In this document: positions 3,285 to 63,030 of the stretch, piece by piece | Layout: every line of letters starts with the position of its first letter | Position numbering within the stretch: the first letter of the stretch is position 1 | From: Stegostoma tigrinum | Taxonomy: Eukaryota | Direction of reading: 5' to 3' | NCBI RefSeq assembly: GCF_030684315.1 | Contig: NC_081354.1 | Location: 148,262,730 to 148,326,729 of the forward strand | DNA length: 64,000 nt | Program-made: the position numbers and the translations under genes | The notes under the pieces: model-generated | Databases searched by the model: none | What the model was told of the DNA's origin: nothing | What the model saw: the letters and a program-made list of their open reading frames with translations, nothing else

Positions 3285-3934
3285 AGAGATAATGGGAACT
3301 GCAGATGCTGGAGAATTCCAAGATAATAAAATGTGAGGCTGGATGAACACAACAGGCCCAGCAGCATCTCAGGAGCACAAAAGCTGACGTTTCGGGCCTA
3401 GACCCTTCATCAGAGAGGGGGATGGGGAGAGGGAACTGGAATAAATAGGGAGAGAGGGGGAGGCGGACCGAAGATGGAGAGTAAAGAAGATAGGTGGGGA
3501 GGTAGGGAGGGGATAGGTCGGTCCAGGGAAGACGGACAGGTCAAGGAGGTGGGATGAGGTTAGTAGGTAGATGGGGGTGCGGCTTGGGGTGGGAGGAAGG
3601 GATGGGTGAGAGGAAGAACCGGTTACGGAGGCAGAGACATGTTGGACTGGTTTTGGGATGCAGTGGGTGTGGGGGAAGAGCTGGGCTGGTTGTGTGGTGC
3701 AGTGGGGGGAGGGGACGAACTGGGCTGGTTTAGGGATGCAGTAGGGGGAAGGGGAGATTTTGAAACTGGTGAAGTCCACATTGATACCATTAGGCTGCAG
3801 GGTTCCCAGGCGGAATATGAGTTGCTGTTCCTGCAACCTTCGGGTGGCATCATTGTGGCAGTGCAGGAGGCCCATGATGGACATGTCCATCTGCTTGGCC
3901 TGCTGTGTTCATCCAGCCTCACATTTTATTATTA
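3285..3934 (-). mobile_element. PLE 'family A' 5'-truncated copy with short inverted terminal arm and 14-bp TSD
   Basis: Minus strand encodes DMSIMGLLHCHNDATRRLQEQQLIFRLGTLQPNGINVDF (end of PLE GIY-YIG ORF). 3891-3932 is an inverted copy of the terminus. TGCCAGATACTGTT flanks it at 3271-3284 and 3935-3948. Confidence 0.85.
3386..3413 (-). ncRNA. Minimal hammerhead ribozyme motif (family A, intact core)
   Basis: Reverse complement CTGATGA-A-GGG-TCTAGG-CCC-GAAA-CG-TC. Confidence 0.75.
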
Positions 3935-10035: not shown

Positions 10036-11159
10036 GATAATGTAGACTTTAAGAATCCAATGGACACTTATTACAGCTACTTGTAATGTGCCAACATTAT
10101 ATTCACAGACACATCATTGGTGAAGCTTTTTGGATGAAAAGCTTGCCAGTCAGTTTATTAAGTTTGTAACTGGTTCTTAAATCAGCGAGCTTTCTTACTG
10201 GTGGGTTGGGAGTTAATCAGCCCTGAATTTGCCTGCCCCAAGACTTAATGAATTGGACAAATTTTAGAAAATTCACTGAGAAATTTAAAAACGTCCTTAT
10301 ATTTAAGGAACAAAAATTATAAAATTGTTGAAGCCTCATCTGGTACTTAGGAATAATCTAAACCAAAATTAAGATTGTGTGCAAATGGAAGAAACAAATT
10401 TGTGAAAGATAGACCAGGAATGCAGTATTAATGTTTTCAAAATGTCATTGAGTATGTTTTAGCAGTAGCATGCTGATATAAAATGAAAGTGTAACATGAA
10501 CAAAGCTAAATAAACCTACCCTTGACATCTGTGTAGGGGAATATTCAGTCCTGCAGTTTTCCAGCTAAAACTTTAAAAGGCACCAATTGGCTGGGCCTGA
10601 GAGCAAGAGAATTCCCTGAAGCTAGCAGCTGTCTTAATGTTATAGATTTTAAAACAGCAATTTCCTGTTCATTTTTTGTATAATTTAATCCTGTTGTAAG
10701 TAATAAAATAACTTGTACTGTTGTAGAAATTTATTTAGGTTAAAGTACATCAGCAAGCTACAACTGACCTGAATTTAATATATAAACGCATCTAATGCTC
10801 AACTTACATCGCATAACTTCTGCCTGAAGGATGAGATTGTGTTACACACAAAGCAACTAGTAATGTGAAGTAGTGAAATTTTTAACAAAGAATAACTAGC
10901 AATGTCTGGATGGCAGTGTGCAGGATACAGAATAATGTCTGGATGGGTGTGTCATAAATATTCTATAACATTTGCTTTCTATAGTCAAAAATACAGAAGA
11001 ACGTGTACTTGTAAATTTGGTGATGAATGTACTCTGGACAGCAGGACGAGAAAGACTGAAGAGGTGTTCTCTCACACTGTGTTTGATTTGAAGTTAAACT
11101 GTACCCAGATATACTTGGTTTTTGCCAGTGTTCTCTTGTGTAATTCGAGATCTATTTCA

Positions 11160-11713
11160 TCTCCCGCTCCTGTTCCTTAGACGACATATCCATCCTGGGC
11201 CTCCTGCAGTGCCATAATGATGCTACCCGTAGATTGCAGGAACAGCAACTCATATTCCGCTTGGGAACCCTGCAGCCCAATAGTATCAATGTGGATTTCA
11301 CAAGCTTCAAAATCTCCCCTCCCCACCACTGCATCTCAAAATGAGCCAAGCTCATCCCTGCCTCCCTAACCTGTTCTTCCTCTCACCTATCCCCTCCTCA
11401 CACCTCAAGCCGCACCTCCATTTCCTACCTACTAACCTCATCCCGCCCCCTTGACTTGACTGACCTATCCCCTCCCTACCTCCCCACCCATATTCTCCTC
11501 TCCACCTATCTTCTTCTCTATCCATCTTCGGTCCGCCTCCCCCTTTCTCCCTATTTATTTCAGAATCCTCTCCCCATCCCCCTCTCTGATGAAGGGTCTA
11601 GGCTCGAAACGTCAGCTTTTGTGCTCCTGAGATGCTGCTTGGCCTGCTGTGTTCATCCAGCTCCACACTTTGCTATCTCGGATTCTCCAGCATCTGCAGT
11701 TCCCATTATCTCT
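11160..11713 (+). mobile_element. PLE family A truncated copy
   Basis: Same GIY-YIG C-terminus, pyrimidine-rich UTR, hammerhead and long terminus ...gcagttcccattatctctg as the 3285 copy. Confidence 0.85.
11586..11613 (+). ncRNA. Minimal hammerhead ribozyme motif (family A)
   Basis: CTGATGA-A-GGG-TCTAGG-CTC-GAAA-CG-TC; a G-U wobble preserves stem II. Confidence 0.7.
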
Positions 11714-13655
11714 GATACTTGCACTGTTCTCTGGTTTTATTATGCAGCATGTTTCTACCTGATCACATTCAAGCCAGGTGATAATTCTAAATTATGTTGT
11801 TTTTAAAAACAATCAGCTGTATCAGACTACAGGAAACAAATTCATTACTGCTGCTTAAAATTCATGGTTTGAACTGCAAATTCTGTTTTTGTGCATCAGG
11901 CTCAGTTATAAACGGAACTGTGCAGAATTTGTATAACTACGAAACTATTTGGAGATTTAAAAATAATCCCATGTGTGAGATTTGGTGCGAACTATAAGAA
12001 TGCAAAATGCAATTCTTTTTCGGCTGATAAAGTGGTCAGGTAACACTTGAACCAAAGCAAGAGGCATTTCATTGAAATATGTTACAATTGTAGTTAGCAC
12101 CAGAAACAATAATCGAATTATTTTGTTTCTAATGGTACATTGTTTCTGTAAAGTACAAGGAACTGCCTTAGTATATAACGATGTCAGCTTTAATTCATTT
12201 TCCAACTTATGAATTGCAACTGGAAGGTGCGAATTGTTTTGTAGCCAACTATGACAGCCGTTTTGCACACACAATCCCACAAACAGAAATGAAAGTTAAT
12301 TGGTGGTGTTGCTTGAGGGAGTTGTAATGGCCAGAATTTTGAGGGAACTGCCTTCAAATAAGACCTTATTTTTCACAGAGCTAAACCATTAGATTGGGCC
12401 TCACTTTAACGTCTTATCCAAGTTAAACCTCTGTTGCACAGGTCCCTTGATATCACACTAAGTGATGTGCTTCCCCTAAACCACGATTTTGGCGTTTGAA
12501 TAAATGGATAACTTTTCCATTTGAGTGCGATATTTTAAAATGAATGTAAAACTTTGCATGCAATGAGGAAAAACTAAGAAGCCAAGAAGCTTATGTTTAG
12601 TTTTTTTTGTCATACTGCAGGTCTTTGCAAATTGGTAATCAGGCACTAGACCTTTCATTCCCATACTGTACAACACAAATGTATGAATTTCCATCTGGAG
12701 GGAGGGACCATTTCATTGCTGATAGGGTCACTGTCACAGCAATTAGTCCTGATTATCCAATTAGTAATTTTGATCTACTTGAATTCAATTCATAATAAGC
12801 AACAGGAAAATTCCTCAGAAATACTTTGCACATGAGGAAGGGCAGGGAAAATGCCATTTAGCACATAAACATCAATGAATCACCCTTAATTCCCATCCTT
12901 TGTGTGGTTGTGCTTGCCCTGTTCCTCGATTTAGCCCTGCTACTGATCGTAGCATGTCAATAATGGCAGCAAGGATAAGTGCGCCATCCCCCAGTTTGGT
13001 TTGCCCTTTGCTGCCGGCTATGTGTACCTTGCCTTTCAGGTGAAAGTGAAGAGCGCCTGTGAGTGTTGTGCAATCTGTTTGCCTGCTATGGCTATTGTGA
13101 TTGAATATCGGAAGAGACTGAGCTGCAGATATGAATGTTAGACATAAGTCCTAAGTGAGAGATTGTTGCCAGATTGAAGGGAATTAGGAAGACTGAGCAT
13201 TGTCTGAAAATTGAGTGCAAGCCAGTTTGGTAGGATAGGGCACTTGAAGATGCCTTCATTGACCTTGAAGAGTGCTGTATATGTAATAGTGGCTAGTTTT
13301 AATTGGCTTTAATTAGTACAGACTGAATTTACCTGCAGCTAGTTTCAGTTTTGGACTGCGGGACTTTGGAAGTGTGCTGTTATTCCACAACATGGCTACT
13401 GCTGTTCACAAACTACAATCATAGGAACTAACAAGTAATGCAAAGCTAAGGTGTTGTTTACTTCAGAAGCCACACATGCTGGCAGATTCCAAATCACAAT
13501 CTCTCGGCTTGCTTTTGGGAACCATCAAATTTACGGCTTCTTTCTACTTGGATTAGAATATTTACAAGAAAGGCAGTTTTGAGTATCTCACCCAATTTAA
13601 TCACACACATCTCTGTCTATAAGTGTGAGGCTGGAAAAGTACAGCAGTCGGCTTT

Positions 13656-14806
13656 GTGAGGGGCAGGTCATGCCTCACAAACCTTATCGAGTTCTTTGAG
13701 GATGTGACTAGAAAAGTTGATGAGGGTCGAGCTGTGGATGTGGTGTATCTGGACTTCAGTAAGGCATTTGATAAGGTTCCCCATGGTAGGCTCATTCAGA
13801 AGGTCAGGAGGAATGGGATACAGGAGAAATTAGCTGCTTGGATACAGAATTGGCTGGCCAACAGAAGACAGCGAGTGGTAGTAGAAGGAAAATATTCTGC
13901 CTGGAAGTCAGTGGTGAGTGGTGTTCCACAGGGCTCTGTCCTTGGGCCTCTACTGTTTGTAATTTTTATTAATGACTTGGATGAGGGGATTGAAGGATGG
14001 GTCAGCAAGTTTGCAGACGACACGAAGGTTGGAGGTGTTGTTGACAGTATAGAGAGCTGTTGTAGGCTGCAGCGGGACATTGACAGGATGCAGAGATGGG
14101 CTGAGAGGTGGCAGATGGAGTTCAACCTGGATAAATGTGAGGTGATGCATTTTGGAAGGTTGAATTTGAAAGCTGAGTACAGGATTAAGGATAGGATTCT
14201 TGGCAGAGTGGAGGAACAGAGGGATCTTGGTGTGCAGATACATAGATCCCTTAAAATGGCCACCCAAGTGAACAGGGTTGTTAAGAAAGCATATGGTGTT
14301 TTGGCTTTCATTAACAGGGGGATTGAGTTTAAGAGTCGTGAGATCTTGTTGCAGCTCCATAAAACTTTGGTTAGACCACACTTGGAATACTGCGTCCAGT
14401 TCTGGTCGCTCTATTATAGGAAAGATGTGGATGCTTTGGAGAGGGTTCAGGGGAGGTTTACCAGGATGCTGCCTGGACCGGAGTGTTTATCTTATGACGA
14501 GACGGAGCTCGGACATTTTCATTGGAGAAAAGGAGGAGGAGAGGGGACCTAATTGAGGTATACAAGATAATGAGAGACATAAATAGAGTTGATAGCCAGA
14601 GACTATTTGCCAGGGCAGAAAAGGCTAACACGAGGGATCATAGTTTTAAGCTGGTTGGCGGAAAGTATAGAGGGGATGTCAGAGGCGGATTCTTTACACA
14701 GACAGTTGTGAGAGCATGGAATGCATTGCCAGCAGCAGTTGTGGAAGCAAGGTCACTGGGGACATTTAAGAGACTGTTGGACATGCATATGGTCACAGAA
14801 ATTTGA
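13656..14806 (+). pseudogene. CR1 ORF2 reverse transcriptase fragment (298-aa open stretch, frameshift near 14500)
   Basis: Motifs [57 protein letters not shown]; continues in another frame as RRRGDLIEVYK...WNALP. No endonuclease domain or true start. Confidence 0.95.
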
Positions 14807-14860
14807 GGGTGCATACATGAGGATCAATGGTCGGCACAACATCATGGGCTGAAGGGCCTG

Positions 14861-15457
14861 AAGTGCCACAATGATGCCACCGGAAGGTTGCAGGAACAGC
14901 AACTCATATTCCGCTTGGGAACCCTGCAGCCCAATGGTATCAATGTGGACTTCACCAGCTTCAAAATCTCCCCTTCCCCCACTGCATCCCAAAACCAACC
15001 CAGCTCATCCCCTCCCCCCACTGCACCACACAACCAGCCCAGCTCTTCCCCTCCACCCACTGCATCCCAAAACCAGTCCAACCTGTCTCTGCCTCCCTAA
15101 CCTGTTCTTCCTCTCACCCATCCCTTCCTCCCACCCCAAGCCACACCTCCATTTCCTACCTACTAACCTCATCCCACCTCTTTGACCTGTCCGTCTTCCC
15201 TGGACTGACCTATCCCCTCGCTACCTCCCCACCTGTACTCTCCTCTCCCCCTATCTTCTTTTCTCTCCATCTTCGGTCCGCCTCCCCCTCTCTCCCTATT
15301 TATTCCAGAACCCTCACCCCATCCCCATCTCTGATGAAGGGTCTAGGCCCGAAACGTCAGCTTTTGTGCTCCTGAGATGCTGCTTGGCCTGCTGTGTTCA
15401 TCCAACCTCACATTTTATTATCTTGGATTCTCCAGCATCTGCAGTTCCCATTATCAC
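14861..15457 (+). mobile_element. PLE family A copy inserted in CR1 3' UTR, 16-bp TSD
   Basis: TGGGCTGAAGGGCCTG at 14845-14860 and 15458-15473; encodes QEQQLIFRLGTLQPNGINVDF; three ~39-bp internal tandem units. Confidence 0.9.
15331..15358 (+). ncRNA. Minimal hammerhead ribozyme motif (family A, intact core)
   Basis: CTGATGA-A-GGG-TCTAGG-CCC-GAAA-CG-TC. Confidence 0.75.
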
Positions 15458-18329
15458 TGGGCTGAAGGGCCTGTTCTGTGCTGTACTGTTCTATGTTCTA
15501 TAACATCTCAGGAGCAGGAAAGTCAATGTTTCAGGCCAAAACCCTTCGTCCAGACTTCGGCCCAAAATGTTGGCTTTCCTGCTCCTCGTATGCTCTCTGA
15601 CCTGCTGTGCTTTTCCGGCTTCTCACCTATAGCCTCTGGCTTCCAGCACCTGCAGTCCTTATTGTTTCCTAAATTGCACTTATTGCAAGTTTCTGGAATG
15701 AACATAATTTCTTGGTGAAACATAATCTTTCGGATTGCAAGTGAAAGACCCAGACAGATCGATGGTAAATAAGTAGGGTAAAAGCCCAAGTAATTTAAAA
15801 ACATTTTGATCTGAAAACCAGATTATTTAATCAAGCGCTGTATCGTTTCTGAAGGAGGAATGTTGAGTCTCTGAGAGTGAATGGAATGCGATATGGTTCA
15901 CTGCATTTCTGTTGCTGCATTAGAGTTTCATTTGGGATCAGTTTCCTTTATCTGGAGTCAGCTGCACTCCAATGAGCATTGCATGGATGTCGCCAAACAT
16001 CTGAGCACAAGTCAGTTGTTGTGATTTTGTTCTCTTGCCCGTATTTCAATGAAACGTGCTGATCACAGGCAGCCAATTCACAATCAAGTGCATGGTTGGC
16101 AGCATTTCAGCTGTGGTGTAGTACTGAGCTATACTCAACAAAGGAGAACATTGTTTTTTTTTGTTGGCCACCAGGATGATTTTTTTTTGATTTATGCATA
16201 GCAGCTGAAAGAAAAGAATAACTAATGAATTGACAAATAATTTATCAGAATATCCTTCCTCACTTAGTGTTAGTAGGATTATGAGTCTGGTTTCCTTTTC
16301 AATGCCTGTTCTTCCAAACAAGTTGTTATGATGTCCTTGTAAATATGGAGAAAGTAGTAAACATCTTAATCAAAATTAAATGGTAGTGTCTGGCCCAGTG
16401 ACACTGGCCAGATGTACAGAATTAGGTTGGCAGGGGAGTGTTGCTGAAGACTAGAATGCTAGGACATTGTTTCCATTTATAATTTTGTATTTTCTATGTT
16501 TGTAGTATAGGTTCCAAGTGCTAGTAAGGAGTCACTTTTATGTCCTCTATTAACACAACAATGTTAATACCATAGATCATACTCTATAGCTCATCCCACT
16601 TTTCCAGGTTCCAAAAATCGTGTTTCTGTACATGCACAGAATATAGGTTCACCAACCCCATCACTCAAAGTGACATATTGTTACTCCCATTAGCAGTATG
16701 TGGCAATTTTACACCCCAGTGATAATGATTTACATATTTGTATCTTTATAATTGGGCATAAGGGCTCAAATGATACAAGCTGTAATACCAAACAGATCTG
16801 CTGAATTTTAAGACATGCCTATGTGGAACAGACAACAATTTGGTGAATCTTGAAAAGAAATTATTCATCCAACAAAATGAATGAAAATATGAAGCCAGTT
16901 TCCAAGCTGAAAGTCGTACTGTTTGTTAGCTTGTCAAGCATTGGTGCTGCTGCAAGGGAATTTAGTGTTATTGAAAAGCTAGTGCAGGAATGACAAAATA
17001 ACGCCCAAGACCAAAAGTACCATCAAAACAGGGAGCAGATACTAGCATCCTACATGTTGCAACATTTCAGGGTTTGCACAGGGACTGTTTCAGAAGTCAG
17101 TCTGCTCCACTCTTAGGAGTTAACTTTTCACCTATGTATTGCTCGCAGTTGTTAAAAACAAGTGTTGTCCTCAAGTTAATGTGTTTGAAAGTAATTCTGA
17201 TTTGTCATCATGATAATCATAATTTTCAAAAATAAAAATGCGGTTAAGCCAAGTTGTCCAACATTTGTTGTTCAATTTTCATTTGGGCTCCTCAACGAAT
17301 GATTCAACTATAGTGTTCATTCCAAATGGGATTGGTGGATATTGAGGGAAAAAATTCACAGGAAGTGGAAATGTTATCTTGCTACCCGGGCTGATACTTT
17401 GTGTGATCTCATTGTGAAATCATGGAATGCTTTCAATGCAGAGTGTCATTAGATCATTCGAAAACACAGATTACACAATGTAGGGAACAGTGTTTTGTTC
17501 TCGCAGGGTGATTGATGCCTGTTATGGATGGCGAGAGGTGGTCAGGATATCTTTTCCCCCTTTTGCTCATCTCACAGCTGAGTTCAACATAGTCTATTTT
17601 TGAGAAGGTATGTTTTAACTGGTTTGAGTGCTGTTATGTTAACGAAGGGACAAAAACATGCTCTGTTATAAATTTAAATCAAAATGGATTCATACTTATT
17701 CTCCCAATATCCATAATATAAATGCAACAAAACACCTATGGACTAAATCTGTAAACATACATAAAAAGCAAATAAGATTGCTATATATGTACCATATACT
17801 TAGATTACTAAGAGAGTAACAGGGAAAAAGGTTATTTTTTTTAACAAGTCCTTTAAGATGCATGTTGAAAAATAACATTGGCCTGAAAGGTTCGCTCTTG
17901 GTTCCTTGGAGATAAATCAACATGGAGGTTCCTAGCTTTTACAGGCAAAATTGTAGCTGAATTCCTGCTGTGAAGAAGTGTTGAAAGTAAGGTAAGTAAG
18001 GCATGACTGATTTCTTGAAATAACTTTTTTTTTGTTTTAAGCAGCATTTCTCTTTCCACCCGACATGGTCCCTCACCGCTACATATGCTGGCTTGCTGAA
18101 TCCCCTTGTGGAGTAATAAAGTGTCAATCCATGTTCCTATCCATCTGCTTTCTGTCATGTGATGGTAATTTCATTAGATCCCTTAGTCCGTGTATTGTGT
18201 TCGTCCCAAAGTGATTACCCTAGTTTGGGGTTGTGTGTTGAGGATGAGGAGGTTGAGAGAGAGGGTGGTGTGGAATCATTAGATATTTCATAAACATATC
18301 AAAAATGGTATTTATGGCCTGTATTATCC

Positions 18330-47669: not shown

Positions 47670-47960
47670 AGTGATGATGAAGTGATATTGTTGTTAGACA
47701 AGTAACCCAGAGACCCTTATGGTAATGCTTGTGGTACCAGGGTTCAAGTCTGACCACAGGAGATAGTGAAATTGAATTTACAATAAAATCTAGAAGGGAA
47801 AGTCTAATGATGGCCATAAAACCAGTGTCAATGATTTGTAAAAATTCAGCTGATTCACTGATCATCTTTAGTGAAGGAAATTTACTATCCTTACCTGATG
47901 TGGCCTACACATTATTCTAGATCCGCAGCAATGTGGTTGACATTTATCTGCTCTCTGAAA
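47670..47960 (+). mobile_element. Deu-type SINE
   Basis: gggttcaagtc B-box-like, tgaaattgaattt, ctgattcactgat...tttagtgaaggaaatttactatccttacc; homologous to 46075. Confidence 0.6.
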
Positions 47961-48158
47961 GTGCCCAATATCAAACCACTTAAAAAGTCTCAGGAAAGGA
48001 AGAAAACCAGTTGGGTCGCCAGGATGCGAACTAGGCGCTGGAAATGACCATGAGAAATTAGACAGCGAGCCTGTTGTCCACCTCACTAACAACTGAAGGT
48101 TAGTGCCAAAATTGGGAGAACAGCCTCAGAACTAATCAAGTGACGGCCCAAAATTGCC

Positions 48159-49642
48159 TGTAAGGTATGATTCCATGAGCATGAGTGTACTGATTACAAC
48201 AAGGTCAATCAGGTGGACTATAAACTGTACTATAAACTCACTGACTCCCACAGCTACCTGGACTACACATCCTCGCACCGTTTTTCCTGTAAAGACTCCA
48301 TCCCATTCTCTCAGTTCCTTCGTCTCCATCGCATATGTTCAGATCAGGCCAACTTCGACAAGGGAGCCTCCGAATTGTCCATGTTCTTCCTCAACTGAGG
48401 ATTCTCCAGCTCCGTTGTCAACAGGGCCCTCAATCGGGTATGACCCATCTCCCACACTTACACCCTCACCTCTTCTCTTCCCTCCTGCAATAGAGATAGG
48501 GTTCCCCTTGTCCTTACCTACCATCCCACCAGCATCCACATCCAGAAGATCATCAAGCGCCATTTCCACCACCTCCAACAGGATGCCAACACCAGGTGCA
48601 TAATGCCCTCCTCTCCATTGTCCACCTTCCACAGGGATTGTTCCCTCCTGGACACCCTGAACCACATTTTGTTCACTGCCAACCTCCCCACAGACCCACA
48701 GCACTTTCCCCTGCAACAAGTGAAGACATAATACCTGCCCATTTACCTCCTCCCTCTCCAGTATCCAAGGGCCTAAACATGCCTTCCAGGTGAAGCAACG
48801 CTTCACCTGCACTTCCCTGAATCTAGTCAATTGTATTCGCTGCTCTCATTACAGTCTCCTCTATATTGGGGAAATGAAGTGTAGACTTGGTGACAGCTTT
48901 GAAGAACATCTATATTCTGCTCACAAATAAGACCCTGAACTACTCATTGCCTGCCACTTTATGACACCACCCTGTTCCCTGGCCAACATCTCTCTCTCTC
49001 TCTGGCTTCCTGCAGTGTTCCAGCAAAGCTGTAAGAACAACACCTCATTTTCTGCTTGGGGGCCGTGCAGCCCTCCAGACTCAATATCGAGTTCAATAAT
49101 TTTAGGGCCTAAACTCTTCATGTCTCAGCCCCCCACCCCACACACCAGGCCCTTTTGTCACATAGCCTGCCGTTACATACTAACTAATGTTAGTAACTAA
49201 CCGTCCCCATCAACAACCAATCACCCTCCCAGCCTGATTGTTATCAATTCCTTTGTCTATCCAACTGTTCTCCTCTCTCTTTAGGCTCTAGCCTGTCGTT
49301 TACTCTCTACTCCACCCACCTCCCTATTTTCTGCATATAAACAGCCACTATCAGTTCTGAGGAAGGGTCACTGTTAGGAATCATTAACTCTGATTTTTTC
49401 TTAACAGATGCCACCAGATCTGCTGAGCTTTTCCGTCAACTTCTGTTTTTGGACCTCATAGAATATGAGTTCCCTGATTGGGGCTGTTAATCTGGTCCAA
49501 TCAGGGAGCCCTGGATGACAGATAACAACAGAAGTGTCAGACATCCTGATCATTATGAGGAAATTGAGTCAGTGTCAGGACTCTCCTTGTGTAAATAAAG
49601 GGTGACTTGGTGAGGAGCTGTCGCCTTTGTGGAGTTATTTCA
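48159..49642 (+). mobile_element. Solo LTR (TG...CA, ~250 bp) split by a PLE insertion
   Basis: Begins TGTAAGG, ends TTATTTCA; contains the dyad ccctgattgg/ccaatcaggg and AATAAA ~45 bp before the end; halves join through duplicated TGGAC (48214-48218, 49450-49454). Confidence 0.55.
48219..49449 (+). mobile_element. PLE 3' ~1.2 kb (post-RT domain, GIY-YIG, 3' terminus)
   Basis: YYKLTDSHSYLDYTSSHRFSCKDSIPFSQFLRLHRICSD; LVNCIRCSHYSLLYIGEMKCRLGDSFEEHL at ~48820-48910; decayed ctgaggaagggtcact hammerhead at ~49357. Confidence 0.88.
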
Positions 49643-50448: not shown

Positions 50449-51775
50449 GAAATAGAACATAGAACATTACAGCACAGTACAGGCCCTTTGGCCCTCGATG
50501 TTGTGCCAACCCGTCATACCGATCTCAAGCCCATCTAACCTACACTATTCCATGTATGTCCGTATGCTTATCCAATGACGACTTAAATGTACCCAATGTT
50601 GGCAAATCTACTACCATTGCAGGCAAAGCGTTCCATTCCCTTACTACTCTCTGAGTAAAGAAACTACCTCTGACATCGGTCCTATATCTTTCACCCCTTA
50701 ATTTTAAGCTATGCCCCCTCGTGCTCGCCGTCACCATCCTAGGAAAAAGCCTCTCCCTATCCACCCTATCTAACCCTCTGATTATTTTATATGTTTCAAT
50801 TAAGTCACCTCTCAACCTTCTTCTCTCTAATGAAAACAGCCTCAAGTCCCTCAGCCTTTCCTCGTAAGACCTTCCCTCCATACCAGGCAACATTCAAGTA
50901 AATCTCCTCTGCACCCTTTCCAAAGCTTCCACATCCTTCTTATAATGCGGTGACCAGAACTGTACGCAATACTCCAAGAGCAGCCGCACCAGAGTTTTAT
51001 ACAGCTTCATCATAAACTCGATCCCTCTATTAATAAAAGCTAAAACACTGTATGCCTTCTTAACAGCCCTGTCAAACTGGGTGGCAACTTTCAAGGATCT
51101 GTGTACATGGACACAGAGATCTCTCTACTCATCTACACTACTAAGAATCTTACCATTAGCCTAGTACTTTGCCTTCCGGTTACTCCTACCAAAGTGCATC
51201 ACCTCACACTTGTCTGCATTAAACTCCATTTGCCACCTCTCAGCCCAGCTCTGCAGCTTATCTATGTCTCTCTGCAACCTACAGCATCCTTCATCACTAT
51301 CCACAACTCCACCGACCTCAGTGTCATCTGCAAATTTACTAACCCATCCTTCTACGCCCTCATCCAGGTCATTTATAAAAATGACAAACAGCAGTGGACC
51401 CAACACCGACCCTTGCGGTACACCACTAGTAACTGGTCTCCAGGATGAACATTTCCCATCAACTACCACCTTCTTCTTTCAGCAAGCCAATTTCCGATCC
51501 AAACTGCTATATCTCCCACAATCCCATTCCTCCGCATTTTGTACAATAGCCTATTGTGGGGAACTTTATCGGACGCCTTGCTGAAATCCATATACACCAC
51601 ATCAACCGTTTACTCTCATCTACCTGTTTGGTCACCTTCTCAAAGAACTCAATAAGGATTGTGAGGCACGACCTTCCTTTCACAAAACCGAGCTGACTAT
51701 CCCTAATCAATTTATTCTTTTCTACATGATTATAAATCCTATCCCTTATAACCTTTTCCAACACTTTTCCAACAA
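50449..51775 (-). mobile_element. CR1-clade LINE, 5'-truncated, frameshifted RT
   Basis: Minus ORFs [25 protein letters not shown]...FADDTE, LEYCVQFWSP, RRRLRGDLIETYK...WNALP; tail (atagaac)n at 50449-50466. Confidence 0.95.
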
Positions 51776-52315: not shown

Positions 52316-53649
52316 CTGCATTGTAGCAGCTAGCTTCATCCTTTGACTTTTGAAAGCCTTGCACTTCATCTCCTGTACAGCATATATGTCTTTTTGCCTT
52401 TTTCGTTTGATTTTTTTTTTGCGAAATTTTCATGATGTGTGCGAGGCAACCTTCAAAAAAAGGTTTTCTTCAGGAATAATCCAGTTCTGTGCTACCAATC
52501 AACTATTTGTTGCTTTATTTCTAAGTGGTAACTTGGGCAAAGTTTAATTAATGCAGGTAAATAAAATTTATCGCAAATAGTAAACGTTTTGAATCACTGA
52601 GTCCACAACCTGTGAATAGCCAATTTTGAACTATTGACAACATCTTTAGAAGAGATTTTATAACTTTATTGTTGAAATGAGGTGACAAAAATTCAGAAAA
52701 AAAAGTCATTCAAGATATTTCAAAAGTGGCTATATCTAACTTAGTTTTTTAGATTTTTGTAAAAGGTGCTCAAACAAGTGGAATTAGTAGAAACACCCAA
52801 TCATGATTACTTGACACTGGGGCAGATTTTTTTTTGGGCAGCACCTGGTTCTAATGCGGTCTCTCTTAAACTAACACAAACAAGTTCAAACTCTTGATGC
52901 ACTGAATGATGTTTGTGATTACAAATCCGCAATCTTATGTGTTGGTTACACTGTGTCAGGCAAATTGCACTGAAGTTAACAAATGGAAACTCGAGGCCAT
53001 GTTGCATTTTATTTCTTTTAGATCAATGTAAAGATTAACACACCAAAGACCAATCTATAAATAGCTTTATAAACAAAACAAGATTGTTTTCTTCCGTGTG
53101 TTTCTTAATTTGCCCTGTGATGTTGCCTAATGCCAGTCGCCTCAAACAACGCTGAGTATTGTTCTGTTCCAAGTGATCTTAGATATCTGCAAATTGCTAA
53201 CTACTTCAGGATTGCAGTGAAAGTCAAGCCAACAGTTTTAAAACAGCTGTAGGCTGAATTAAGTAGTTCAGCAAGTTACCTGAGTTGAAAGATCCTAATT
53301 TCTTAAAGTCTGGCCATTGTAACACTGTAAAAAATTTTTACATGTGTAACCGTATTTACTGAATGAAGTCTTACAACTTTGCGATGGGCAGCATTCAAAC
53401 TTTGAACTTGAGGTGTACTAATCCAGTACCATAAGTTGTACTTCTATACATACCACTCTAGTTGAGGCAGTGTTCCTTATCTTTCATGTGAGTTTTTTTT
53501 ATGTTGAGAATCCATTTTATAATGTCGAAAATCTGTTTGCCTTTTACCATGATAGTGGAATATTATATAATGGAGACACCAATTAATCCAGCAAGGGAAT
53601 TAGAATAAACATCTTGGCCTAAGGACTGGTTGGTGTTGGAGGAGGTGGA

Positions 53650-54328
53650 CGCTTGCAGTGCCAATCAAGTGGGTTGCTTTGTCCTAGATGGTATCAAACT
53701 GCTTGAGTGTTGTTGGAGCTGCGCCCATCCAGGCAAGTGGGGAGTATTCCAACACATTCCTGACTTATGTTTTGGAGATGGTGGACAACTTCTATGGCGT
53801 CAGAAGGTGAGTTAATTGCTGCAGGGTTCCTGGCCTCTGATATGCTCTATATGGCTAGTCCAGTACAGTTTCACGTCAATGGTAACCCCCTGGATGTTAA
53901 TATAGGAGATTCAATAATGGCGGTGCCAATGAAGGCTATGGAGCATTAGTTAGATTCTCCCTAGTTGGAGATAGTCATTGCATGACATTTGTATAGAGCA
54001 AATGTTATTTTTCACTTGTCAGCCTAACACTGAATATTGCCTATATCTTGTTGCATTGGACATGGAATGCTTCAGTATCTAAGGAATCAGTGAATGTTCT
54101 CACTTCTGACCTTCTGATGGGTGGATGAAGTAACTGAAGCTGGTTGGGCCTTAGGCTTGAGAAACTCCTGCAGTGATATCTTAGGTCTGAGATGATTGAC
54201 CTCAAATAATAACAACTATCTTCCTATGTGCTAGAGAGATTCCTCCTGATTTCCAATGATGTCAGTTCCATGATGCCACAGTACTAAGTTCCGACATTCT
54301 CATCTGACATCTGTAATTCAGCTCTTCC
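53650..54328 (-). mobile_element. L2/Crack-like LINE ORF2 fragment
   Basis: Homologous to 22980-23500 (ggggagtattcc..cacattcctgactt; tgccaatcaagtgggttgctttgtcc). Confidence 0.7.
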
Positions 54329-54428
54329 CCATTGCTGGATGGATGCCAGTAGTGTAGGCTATTCCGAAACAAGGTTGACAAGAGAAACAAACTTGGCTAG
54401 TTCTGAAACGCACATCTTCATTGGTATT

Positions 54429-55143
54429 AGATAACAAAGTGTGAAGCTGGATGAACACAGCAGGCCAAGCAGCATCTCGGGAGCACAAAAGCTGACGTTT
54501 CAGGCCTAGACCCTTCATCAGAGAGGGGAATGGGGTGAGGGTTCTGAAAATGCAGTGGGGGGAGGGGACAAGCTGGGCTGGTTTTGGGATGCAGTGGGGG
54601 GAAGTGGACGAACTGGGCTGGTTTTGGGATGCAGTGGGGGAAGGGGAGATTTTGAAGCTTGTGAAGTCCACATTGATACCATTGGGCTGCAGGGTTCCCA
54701 AGCAGAATATGAGTTGCTGTTCCTGCAACCTTCGGGTGGCATCATTGTGGCACTGCAGGAGGCCCAGGATGGACTCCCCACCCCCACCGCATCCCAAAAC
54801 CAGCCCAGCTAATCCCCGCCTGCCTAACCTGTTCTTCCTCTCACCTATCCCTTCCTCCCACCCCAAGCCGCACCTCCATTTCCTACCTACTAACCTCATC
54901 CCGCCTCCTTGACCTGTCCATCCTCCCTGGACTGACCTATCCCCTCCCCACCTCTACTCTCCTTTCCACCTATCGTCTTTTCTCTCCATCTTTGGTCCGC
55001 CTCTCCCTCTCTCCCTATTTATTCCAGAACCCTCTCCCCATCCCCCTCTCCTGATGTAGGGTCTAGGCCCGAAACATCAGCTTTTATGCTCCTGAGATGC
55101 TGCTTGGCCTGCTGTGTTCATCCAGCTTCAGAATTTGTTATCT
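54429..55143. mobile_element. PLE family A inverted (two-armed) copy with a hammerhead motif in each arm
   Basis: Minus arm 54429-~54773 (hammerhead 54494-54521, internal deletion near 54550) joined to plus arm ~54774-55143 (mutated hammerhead 55051-55078); both arms end at the short terminus ttgttatct. Confidence 0.88.
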
Positions 55144-55399
55144 AATACCAATGAAGATGTGCGTTTCAGAATTAGCATTTCTTAATGTACTTATCGTCAA
55201 AGGTATTTTCTTTGAAAATTTTTTCCATGATGTACAGATGATATAGGACAGTCCAACTAAGTGGAATGTTCCGCAGCAACCTCGTTATGCAGTGACTCTC
55301 GGCATTAGTGTACCTAGGGTCTATGCACAGCCTGACCCAGGCACACACAAAAGTGACCATCAGGATGAGGGCAGAATTGAGTAGGTCCTGGGTATAATC

Positions 55400-56460
55400 T
55401 GTGGTCCGAGACACTACCACAAGGGGAAACAACCTTTCCACATCTGCTCTGTCAATAATGTAAGAATCTTATACATTTCAATAAGGTTGGATCTCATTTT
55501 TCTATATTTCAATAGGTGTAGGCTGAAACCAGTCATTTTAAAACAGTCCCTCCATGCCTGCTATCTGCCTGGTGGACCTCTTCAGGTCTTCCTCCAATGC
55601 TAATATATCATTCTTTCAACAAAAGTGGCTCAGAATTATTCACAGTATTCCAGCTCTGGACATGACTAGTCTTGTATAGGTTTAGCAAAACCATCCTGTT
55701 TTTATACTCACTCAGAGATAGTAAAAACTGCTGATGGTGGAGTCAGAGATAACAGTGTGGAGCTGGAGGAGCACAGCAGGCCAGGCAGCATCAGAGCAGC
55801 GGGAAAGTTGACATTTCAGGTTGGGGCCCTTCTTCAGGCACCATCAGCATTTCTGAAGAAGGGTCCCAACCCAAAATGTCAACTTTCCTGCTGCTCCGAT
55901 GCTGCCTGGCCTGTTGTGCTCCTCCAGCTCCACACTGTTTTATCTATTTTTATACTCCATTCCCTTTAAAATATAGGCCAACAATCCATATGCCCTCCCT
56001 ATTAACCTCAAAATATGAATGCTAGCATTTTGTCATTCATGGACTAGATTTTCCAAATTCCTCTGTTCTGTAGATTTCTGCGGGCTTTCCATATTTTAAT
56101 AATGCGCAGCTCCTCTATTCTCCCTGCCAAAATGCATAACCTCACATTTCCCCACATTATGTTCCATCTACCAAGGTTCCTTGCAATCACCTAACCTGTC
56201 CATATCCACCTGCAGATCCTTTGTGTCATCCTGCACACTTGATTTCCAACCTATTTTTGTGTCATTCACGAACATGACTATAATATCTTCAGTTTCCTGA
56301 GCCAAGCCATTAATACATATTGAAAATAATTGTGGTTCCAGCACGGATCCCTGTGGCACACCATTAGTTACAAGTTGCTATCCTGAAAATGACCCCTCTA
56401 TTCGAAATCTATCATCTTTTAGTTAGCTAATGCTCACTCCATGTTTATATACTACCTACA
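55400..56460 (-). mobile_element. Old CR1 ORF2 fragment
   Basis: Minus ORF PQGSVLEPQLFSICINGL...FVNDTKIG...DLQVDMDRL. Confidence 0.8.
55710..55946. mobile_element. Fold-back PLE family B mini-element with 11-bp TSD, inserted in CR1
   Basis: ~90-bp inverted arms around a 15-nt loop; hammerhead-like motifs at 55810-55837 (-) and 55853-55880 (+); TTTTTATACTC at 55699-55709 and 55947-55957. Confidence 0.8.
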
Positions 56461-60923: not shown

Positions 60924-61196
60924 GTCGTATTGGTGGGGAGGGAGGGTGAGGCGGGCCGGGGGTGGAGAGAGAAGAAGATAGGTGGCCTCTCCACCTGTCT
61001 TCTTTTCTCTCCATCTTTGGTCCACTTCCCCCTCTCTCCCTATTTATTCCAGAGCTCTCGCCCCATCCCCCTCTCTGATGAAGGGTCTAGGCCCGAAACG
61101 TCAGCTTTTGTGCTCCTGAGATGCTGCTTGGCCTGCTGTGTTCATCCAGCCTCACATTTTATTATCTTGAATTCTCCAGCATCTGCAGTTCCCATT
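60924..61196 (+). mobile_element. PLE family A short copy with 5' micro-inversion and 14-bp TSD
   Basis: AGCTCTGGATATTG at 60910-60923 and 61197-61210; ~60945-60985 is an inverted copy of ~60991-61035. Confidence 0.85.
61075..61102 (+). ncRNA. Minimal hammerhead ribozyme motif (family A, intact core)
   Basis: CTGATGAAGGGTCTAGGCCCGAAACGTC. Confidence 0.75.
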
Positions 61197-61486
61197 AGCT
61201 CTGGATATTGTGTAGGTCGCGATTGTCACAGTTTAGTCCAAATTGGGATGGTCTGAACATTATTCAGACTTCATGGGGTATGATTCAGCTACATAGGCAA
61301 GTACTGAGAAAGGAGAGTAACGGGTTTGTTTCAGCATATGATCGAAGAGCTTCAGGGCAGAGGAGATCCGCTTATGGGTTGCGTTGGGAGTGACATCCAC
61401 TGAGATGTTTTCAGAGGGATGAGGACAGCTTCTTCAAGGTGGGCATTTTTGGAAGACGCTTCACAGTAGGGTTTCCAGCAACTAGG

Positions 61487-61702
61487 AGATAGCACTGCAG
61501 ATACTAGAGTCAGAGTTGGTACAGCGTAGAGCTGGAGGAACACAGCAGGTCAGGCACCAACAGAGGAACAGGATCGGGGCTGGTGAAAGGTGTAAACCCA
61601 TGACATCGACGTTCCTCCTCTCCGATGCTTCCTGACTGGCTGTGTTCCTCCAGCTGTACATTGTATTAATTCTGACTCTAGCATCTGCAATTGTTGCTAT
61701 CT
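61487..61702. mobile_element. Fold-back PLE family B mini-element
   Basis: agatagca.tgcagatactagagtcaga...gctggaggaacacagc versus gctgtgttcctccagc...tctgactctagcatctgca...tgctatct. Confidence 0.75.
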
Positions 61703-61709
61703 GCTAGAA

Positions 61710-62828: not shown

Positions 62829-63030
62829 AAAACAAAGAACTGTGGATGCTGGGGATTTGAAACAAAAACAGAAATTGCTGGCAAAACTAAGCAGGTCTGA
62901 CAGCATCTATGGAGCGAAAATAGAGTTTTCAAGTTCTGAAGAAGAGCCACCAGATTCAAAATGGTAACTGCTTTCTCTCCACGGATGCTACCAGACCTGG
63001 TAGTTCTGCCAGAAATTTCAGTTTTTGTTT
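62829..63030. mobile_element. Fold-back PLE-terminus mini-element (family of the 48219 element)
   Basis: aaacaaaaacagaaattgctggcaaaac..caggtctgacagcatc versus gatgctaccagacctg..gttctgccagaaatttcagtttttgttt; central ctgaagaagag...ttcaaaat is a decayed hammerhead. A similar remnant lies at ~41171-41330. Confidence 0.7.

Follow-up and report, generated by a model that had tools for sequence, protein, structure and literature searches.

We identified an insertion of a Penelope-like element (PLE) at which local target DNA is present in inverted orientation. The insertion occupies 54429-55143 of the 64-kb stretch of DNA that was analysed (hereafter, the window), and 32 of the 33 positions of 54396-54428, on its left, are the reverse complement of 55144-55176, on its right. 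The inverted 33-nt pair is real and no assembly artefact. With moderate confidence, we trace it to a single PLE insertion, in which the right arm of the element together with its 33 nt would have been copied, by fold-back, from the first cDNA and the priming target, and joined to the resected far end of the break.

Structure of the insertion

The insertion consists of two PLE arms arranged head to head, the 3′ end of each adjoining one copy of the 33-mer. The left arm (54429-54774, minus strand, 346 nt) contains the end of an ORF, 39-40-nt repeat units and the pLTR end, and has its tail-less 3′ end at 54429; the right arm (54775-55143, plus strand, 369 nt) has its 3′ end at 55143, with the same tail-less terminus. 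Both arms belong to a PLE family, family A, that is present in further copies in the window, and each 33-mer begins at the first base past the family's tail-less terminus. The sole mismatch between the inverted copies lies at 54400/55172. The match runs 121 nt further, into the PLE arms, and a 33-nt inverted match of this quality has a chance expectation of about 1e-17 per position pair; no further copy of either flank was found by BLAST within the 64-kb window. The initial annotation had described an inverted 33-nt duplication abutting both termini, and the description is borne out in each of these respects.

No direct target-site duplication (TSD) was found at this insertion. The head-to-head centre (54774-54775) shows at most 1 nt of microhomology and no palindrome, and the family's usual continuation behind 54774 was seen in the aligned contigs. 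At the far joint, 55176, microhomology is likewise about 1 nt, and no LINE sequence follows. In the left arm, an internal deletion junction (54549-54550, minus strand) marks 237 nt that are absent in comparison with the family A copy at 14857-15423 and are present in the right arm. A minimal hammerhead core motif was located by pattern match at the terminus of the left arm (54498-54521, minus strand), with one base different in the aligned right arm; an Rfam search of 54300-56000 detected no hammerhead, the only matches being hairpin-driven and below threshold.

The target LINE and the native copy of the 33-mer

The target of the PLE is a decayed LINE of the AP-endonuclease/RT type (53630-54428, minus strand), recognized by tblastn as an ORF2 remnant. 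Proteins of this old LINE were gathered by a HMMER search with the translation of the left flank, in which stops were written as X (68 found); a word search with the old LINE fragment returned none of 16 candidates. In tblastn, three long ones among them, P0158, P0159 and P0139, which carry Pfam RVT_1, gave colinear pieces from 54234 to 53630, with a sum E value down to 3.5e-17.

The last target bases before the left junction (54396-54428, minus strand) correspond to 11 codons of the old LINE ORF2. When the 11-residue ORF2 segment was scanned against 127,936 six-frame positions of the window, the top score fell at 54427, tied only with the copy at 55145, a rank that is somewhat flattered because the limits of the segment were picked after the match had been seen. 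With the next ORF2 motif added, the left site alone ranked first (34.0 versus 29.3 for the next). Because the best ORF2 match with the next motif is found at the left site only, we assign the left 33-mer as native target DNA and the right 33-mer (55144-55176, plus strand) as its inverted copy. The proposal in the initial annotation that the 33 nt are local flanking DNA copied in inverted orientation thereby gains support, the left copy being native LINE and the right an orphan, with fold-back as the most likely route.

Relative to the ORF2 spacing, the old LINE shows a 272-nt deficit in three of three proteins, and we place the putative junction of this deletion of about 270-280 nt at 54326-54331. 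This would make three deletions of similar size within 900 nt: that in the LINE, the 237 nt of the left arm and the probable loss at 55176 described below.

Other LINE pieces in the window contributed little to the identification. A second copy of the old LINE, near 23 kb, does not cover the 33-mer region. A younger CR1 (13629-14552), used as a query, proved to be a different LINE family, and its 120 proteins gave no useful match to the 33-mer. This CR1-type stretch forms a 307-aa open frame; RT fragments of CR1-type LINEs were found at 13629-14734 and 50618-51691, and the right flank holds a decayed CR1 piece (55391-55710). The LINE pieces of the window, or close relatives of them, match proteins of Scyliorhinus and Heterodontus at 72-77%, and the host is accordingly likely to be a cartilaginous fish.

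Both junctions in contigs of the same species

Of 16 listed sequencing runs, four contained 0.90-0.91 of the words searched and represent the same species, and nine contained 0.11-0.14 and represent a relative; three same-species raw-read runs from 2026 are bisulfite libraries and were left out. Four of the 16 runs were aligned to 52400-55710, two of the same species (X10 and X11, samples S4 and S5 of one study) and two of the relative. Joints refer to the 15 listed and loose ends to the rows listed, part of the X10/X11 pile being uncounted.

In each of X10 and X11, one contig of 694 nt spans 53737-54430 and another of 305 nt spans 55142-55446, each over the whole record and the latter with 0 differences, at single-copy depth (9.7/22.2 and 11.5/23.2). 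These contigs run unbroken through the 33-mer into unique flank and stop at the first 31-mer common to both arms (54401-54431, the reverse complement of 55141-55171), which is what is predicted for two genomic copies. An exact copy of the 33-mer with another flank would be expected to interrupt the contigs, and they are unbroken. The window is not simply the sequence of these samples, since both depart from it at 52591, 53481 and 54365. Among the contigs listed none spans the whole insertion, and the order of its middle part comes from the window alone.

About 3,200 contigs per same-species run end loose before 54429. Their agreement is only 0.4, and their consensus resembles the canonical tail of the family nearest the junction. 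The initial annotation had named an assembly artefact and an ordinary subfamily tail as readings that would undo its own. On the first, both junctions were recovered at single-copy depth in two same-species samples; on the second, no exact second locus with a family A end and the 33-mer was seen among the same-species contigs listed.

The orthologous site in a relative

Both runs of the relative, which come from two studies, contain a 404-nt contig that aligns to 55176-55452 and carries 127 extra letters leftward; these lie neither on the right 33-mer nor on the PLE. The right flank (55177-55452) is orthologous in the relative from 55176 onward, and as the relative has other DNA beside it, the right 33-mer is, on this comparison, new. 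On the left, a 741-nt contig in both runs aligns to 54208-54326 with 610 extra letters rightward; its exact depth (13.3 and 11.2) recurs at 54365. The aligned piece stops at 54326, where the 272-nt LINE deficit also lies, and because of this coincidence the relative probably keeps the LINE piece of about 272 nt, in which case some 230 nt, by letter count, would remain beyond 54428. The LINE deletion of about 270-280 nt is then probably specific to the lineage of the window.

Judged from letter counts, the window lacks at least about 65 nt, and probably at least 330 nt, of the relative's site, the lower figure following when the 63 letters that 54366-54428 could account for are subtracted from the 127. 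A loss of target DNA at the insertion site is probable, the alternative being an insertion in the relative. The initial annotation had pointed to related sharks for the empty site: in the relative, the right 33-mer is absent, and no empty-site joint occurs among the 15 joints listed.

Flanking sequence differs between window and relative at 53 of 923 nt (5.7%) over five listed pieces of run X1. At 54605, in the repeat units of the left arm, depth is 695-1,153 in the relative versus 404,000-727,000 in the same species, so that the multi-unit subfamily to which the left arm belongs is about 600-fold rarer in the relative at this position, which fits an insertion after the split. The relative had no cover at 52955-53509, and this is not counted as a finding.

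Divergence between the two arms

The arms differ by 10 substitutions and one gap in 121 nt (13 differences in a first alignment). The divergence, 8-11%, is about that between unrelated copies; at most 6.9 differences are expected to have accrued since the split, giving P = 0.16 for 10 and 0.026 for 13. Private substitutions number 4 in 275 nt of the left arm and 13 in 368 nt of the right, and no clear private change is common to both, so that the duplication of the arm would date from about the time of the insertion. The two arms have in common a terminal haplotype that is absent from the nine other family A ends in the window, and at one subfamily-diagnostic site, beside the deletion of the left arm, they disagree. 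A difference in age between the arms and the 33-mer copies was not significant (Fisher P = 0.30). Taken at the level of sequence, the arm data allow one template without proving one.

The 33-mer and the canonical tail of family A

The window holds 11 family A 3′ ends, six with the same tail and five tail-less, both arms of the present insertion included. The canonical tail is exemplified by a 34-nt stretch at 15424-15457 (plus strand), with a 16-nt direct TSD behind it. Five of the eight other family A copies have direct TSDs of 14-17 nt, the remaining three having none that is clear, and at the four tailed copies with a TSD the tail measures 29, 32, 34 and 36 nt up to the duplication. One six-letter motif closes both the tail and the tail-less terminus, and both RT start sites may therefore be chosen by sequence.

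With its 33 nt directly behind the pLTR end, the 33-mer falls within the 30-40-nt length of the tail and in its place. It was considered as a tail-like sequence and rejected as such, being identical to the tail in register at 11-12 of 33 positions, and 11-20% of the 33-mers in the window do as well. A tail is an element-encoded sequence shared among copies; the 33-mer is host LINE DNA. It occupies the place of the tail as any flank would, and its length alone is suggestive. The match in length is likely due to chance, and one event cannot show a peak. The initial annotation had suggested that this copy may capture the formation of a PLE tail, a reading that is not supported, since the canonical tail is one element-encoded sequence at six unrelated loci of the window and not captured flank.

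The same annotation had treated the origin of the tail as debated. The tail has been placed in the element sequence, in a report that also proposed self-priming for inverted arms (PMC3846280), and, before the work on PAc, was ascribed to resolution of an intermediate by the endonuclease (PMC8557442). In work on the anole PLE PAc, reverse transcription starts in vitro at two internal sites of the RNA and the tail is the stretch between them (PMC11167929), which leaves the question less open than the annotation supposed.

Fold-back copying as the preferred explanation

In the sequence of events that we favour, the PLE endonuclease would have nicked an AT-rich site in the old LINE, where target and junction are observed, and the 3′ end at 54428 would have primed reverse transcription at the tail-less start site, a mode of priming that we infer from PMC11167929. 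The cDNA, which ended prematurely at 54774, would then have folded over, and DNA synthesis on it would have passed the terminus and gone on for 33 nt of target; the same sequence would result had replicated sister ends been fused. This end would have been ligated, on about 1 nt of microhomology, to 55177 in the far flank, at the cost of at least about 65 nt, and probably at least 330 nt, going by letter counts. The left arm would later have lost 237 nt, the gap being observed and its timing presumed. The length of 33 nt would be set by resection or end joining, and not by the mechanism that makes the tail.

The two arms adjoin one target nucleotide and do so with the same terminus, for which a single DNA template accounts without coincidence; where an arm continues across the junction into host sequence, DNA was most likely its template. 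The assignment of the left 33-mer to the native LINE and of the right one to an orphan copy, together with the shared terminal haplotype, argues for fold-back as well, and the 10 differences in 121 nt are compatible with an identical origin at a flank divergence of 5.7%. Against it, the arms are imperfect mirrors, with as many differences as unrelated copies, and disagree at one diagnostic site. Since the right arm has 237 nt that are absent from the left, a later deletion must be assumed; it falls in one arm of a long inverted repeat, and a similar deletion lies 100 nt away. The centre, with at most 1 nt of microhomology and no palindrome, would also have been a weak primer. One locus cannot separate the mechanisms.

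The rival accounts begin with two RNA-templated primings (twin TPRT), the second from the far end, which would have received a 33-nt copy of the left flank by templated repair or would have belonged to a pre-existing short palindrome cut at mirror positions. We consider this doubtful. In vitro, PAc uses the same RT start sites on both strands, which it cuts and extends (PMC11167929); the arms differ by 8-11% and in internal structure; and twin priming as the usual route would fit the copy at 3285-3932, with its tailed direct arm, tail-less inverted arm and normal TSD. The second primer, however, would have to stop at precisely the nucleotide of the first, leaving neither TSD nor stagger where 14-17 nt are seen at other copies; the 33-mer's end lacks self-complementarity, and the arms have their terminal haplotype in common. 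Somewhat less probable again is a normal insertion followed by an unrelated replication template switch, which would have started inside the PLE, run 33 nt into the flank and jumped to 55177. It would yield the same sequence, and the probably lineage-specific deletion of about 272 nt lying 100 nt away means that the region has been rearranged more than once; the lack of clear shared private substitutions speaks for a copy made at about the time when the element landed.

In a more specific, and improbable, variant, the form in which the idea of the initial annotation stays viable, the PLE endonuclease would cut the fold-back intermediate a set length of about 33 nt past the pLTR end, as by a ruler laid on DNA that is not tail. 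The 33 nt lie inside the tail range of the family (29-36 nt at four copies with a TSD), PMC8557442 ascribes the tail to endonuclease resolution of an intermediate, and recognition by the D. virilis enzyme depends on the tail, according to work cited in PMC11167929. Yet the tail has been mapped to two RT start sites in the RNA (PMC11167929), and the short motif in which both family A start sites end speaks for sequence rather than distance. In addition, inverted copies of flank are missing from all six other inverted-arm insertions of the window, and the 33-mer does not resemble the tail. Very unlikely is a read-through transcript of the left arm and its flank, with reverse transcription beginning 33 nt beyond the terminus and the product returning to the locus of origin. 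Such an RNA would explain the length directly, but PAc activity needs element RNA downstream of the start sites, as described in PMC11167929, and a transcript running into LINE flank has none; moreover, the left arm lacks 237 nt that are present in the right arm, and no further exact copy with another flank appears in the contigs listed. Hardly credible, and already largely refuted, is an assembly chimera or an ordinary subfamily tail. Hairpins are a known artefact of long reads, and diverged copies of the 33-mer could exist elsewhere, loose ends being seen among the rows listed; against this stand the two single-copy junctions in two samples that differ from the window, the contigs unbroken through the 33-mer into unique flank, the agreement of only 0.4 among the roughly 3,200 loose ends per run before 54429, and the 33-mer itself, which is LINE coding sequence.

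Comparison with known systems

The insertion shares with EN+ PLEs its head-to-head arms, tail-less terminus and hammerhead core and, at other copies of the family, the tail and short TSDs; it differs from those described in PMC3846280 and PMC8557442 in having no direct TSD, in the inverted target duplicate behind the second arm and in the probable deletion of target DNA. With PAc, the Poseidon element of Anolis carolinensis (PMC11167929), it has in common alternative 3′ ends about 30-36 nt apart and an AT-rich target, to which may be added the weak likeness that the native end here finishes in PAc's preferred three-letter motif. The reported PAc tail is element RNA between RT start sites, whereas the 33-mer is host DNA. 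In the part of the published record that we covered, in which the older Penelope literature and subscription papers are thinly represented, no PLE arm running into an inverted copy of its target was found.

A parallel comes from L1 insertions accompanied by local deletion, inversion and inverted duplication, which arise from remodelled break ends (bioRxiv 10.1101/2024.12.14.628481). As in the fold-back explanation, resected, self-annealed or fused break ends leave inverted target copies and deletions. The L1 cases given there mostly involve a remodelled reciprocal end, in cell lines and tumours, whereas the inverted copy here includes the element's own 3′ end and the junction, and recurs in two further samples. 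Taken singly, this locus is probably a repair accident of the kind known from L1.

Whether inverted arms arise by DNA self-priming or by a second RNA priming is still treated as open in the sources considered here (PMC3846280, PMC8557442, PMC11167929), and copies such as this one would be natural read-outs of the PLE intermediate. The general proposition that an inverted PLE arm can be a DNA-templated second strand running through the junction, its hairpin being resolved about 33 nt beyond the pLTR end whatever the sequence, seems to us improbable. If the ruler reading were true, the locus would preserve such a cut in host DNA as a fossil, and a single step would link the tail with the inverted pLTR. 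Each run has about 3,200 family A ends at this terminus, so that a genome-wide tally of flank copied in inverted orientation, by length, would bear on both fold-back and a fixed-distance cut.

Other PLE-type insertions in the window

An inverted arm is present at seven of the window's PLE-type insertions, and an inverted flank copy accompanies one of the seven, the present one; direct TSDs were found at four of the other six and an inverted flank copy at none. Adjacent, inverted and 5′-truncated family A copies are located at 54429-55143, 3891-3932 and 60936-60985. The textbook PLE arrangement is seen in the family A copy at 3285-3932: its direct arm is tailed, its inverted arm (42 nt) is tail-less, and a direct TSD of 14 nt is present. 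For the copy at 60986-61197, the inverted 5′ piece (60936-60985) stops short of the terminus, and its likeness to family A is only about 82%; it may derive from another subfamily. The copy at 11150-11714 has a small imperfect hairpin at its 5′ junction (11150-11190) and no clear TSD.

EN+ PLEs form a partial tandem, pLTR-ORF-pLTR, and carry an ORF with a telomerase-like RT together with a C-terminal GIY-YIG endonuclease. No full-length family A copy was found in the window, and of the ORF only an end of 51-77 aa is present, which resembles the end of a PLE endonuclease and which gave no meaningful match in Pfam, the ESM Atlas (0.77) or PDB sequences. A longer, decayed ORF fragment at 47900-48900 resembles the RT-to-endonuclease region of a PLE; it had no match in Pfam. 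After the ORF end (54550-54647 in the left arm), copies vary in having one to three of the 39-40-nt repeat units. A 27-nt terminal pattern of family A had 0 matches in metagenome, prokaryote-genome and viral contigs, a result that is silent on the shark genome.

The hammerhead core pattern used for family A ends is one that we presume to represent the motif; it has nine matches in the window, of which seven are family A ends, against a chance mean of 2.8. Besides family A, the window contains short hairpin insertions of related, older PLE-type families at 55713-55945, 61482-61707, 15500-15668 and 62860-63030; two of them have direct TSDs and a one-sided tail, and the one at 61.5 kb is tailed on both sides. 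A minimal hammerhead motif has been described for PLE pLTRs (PMC4209133).
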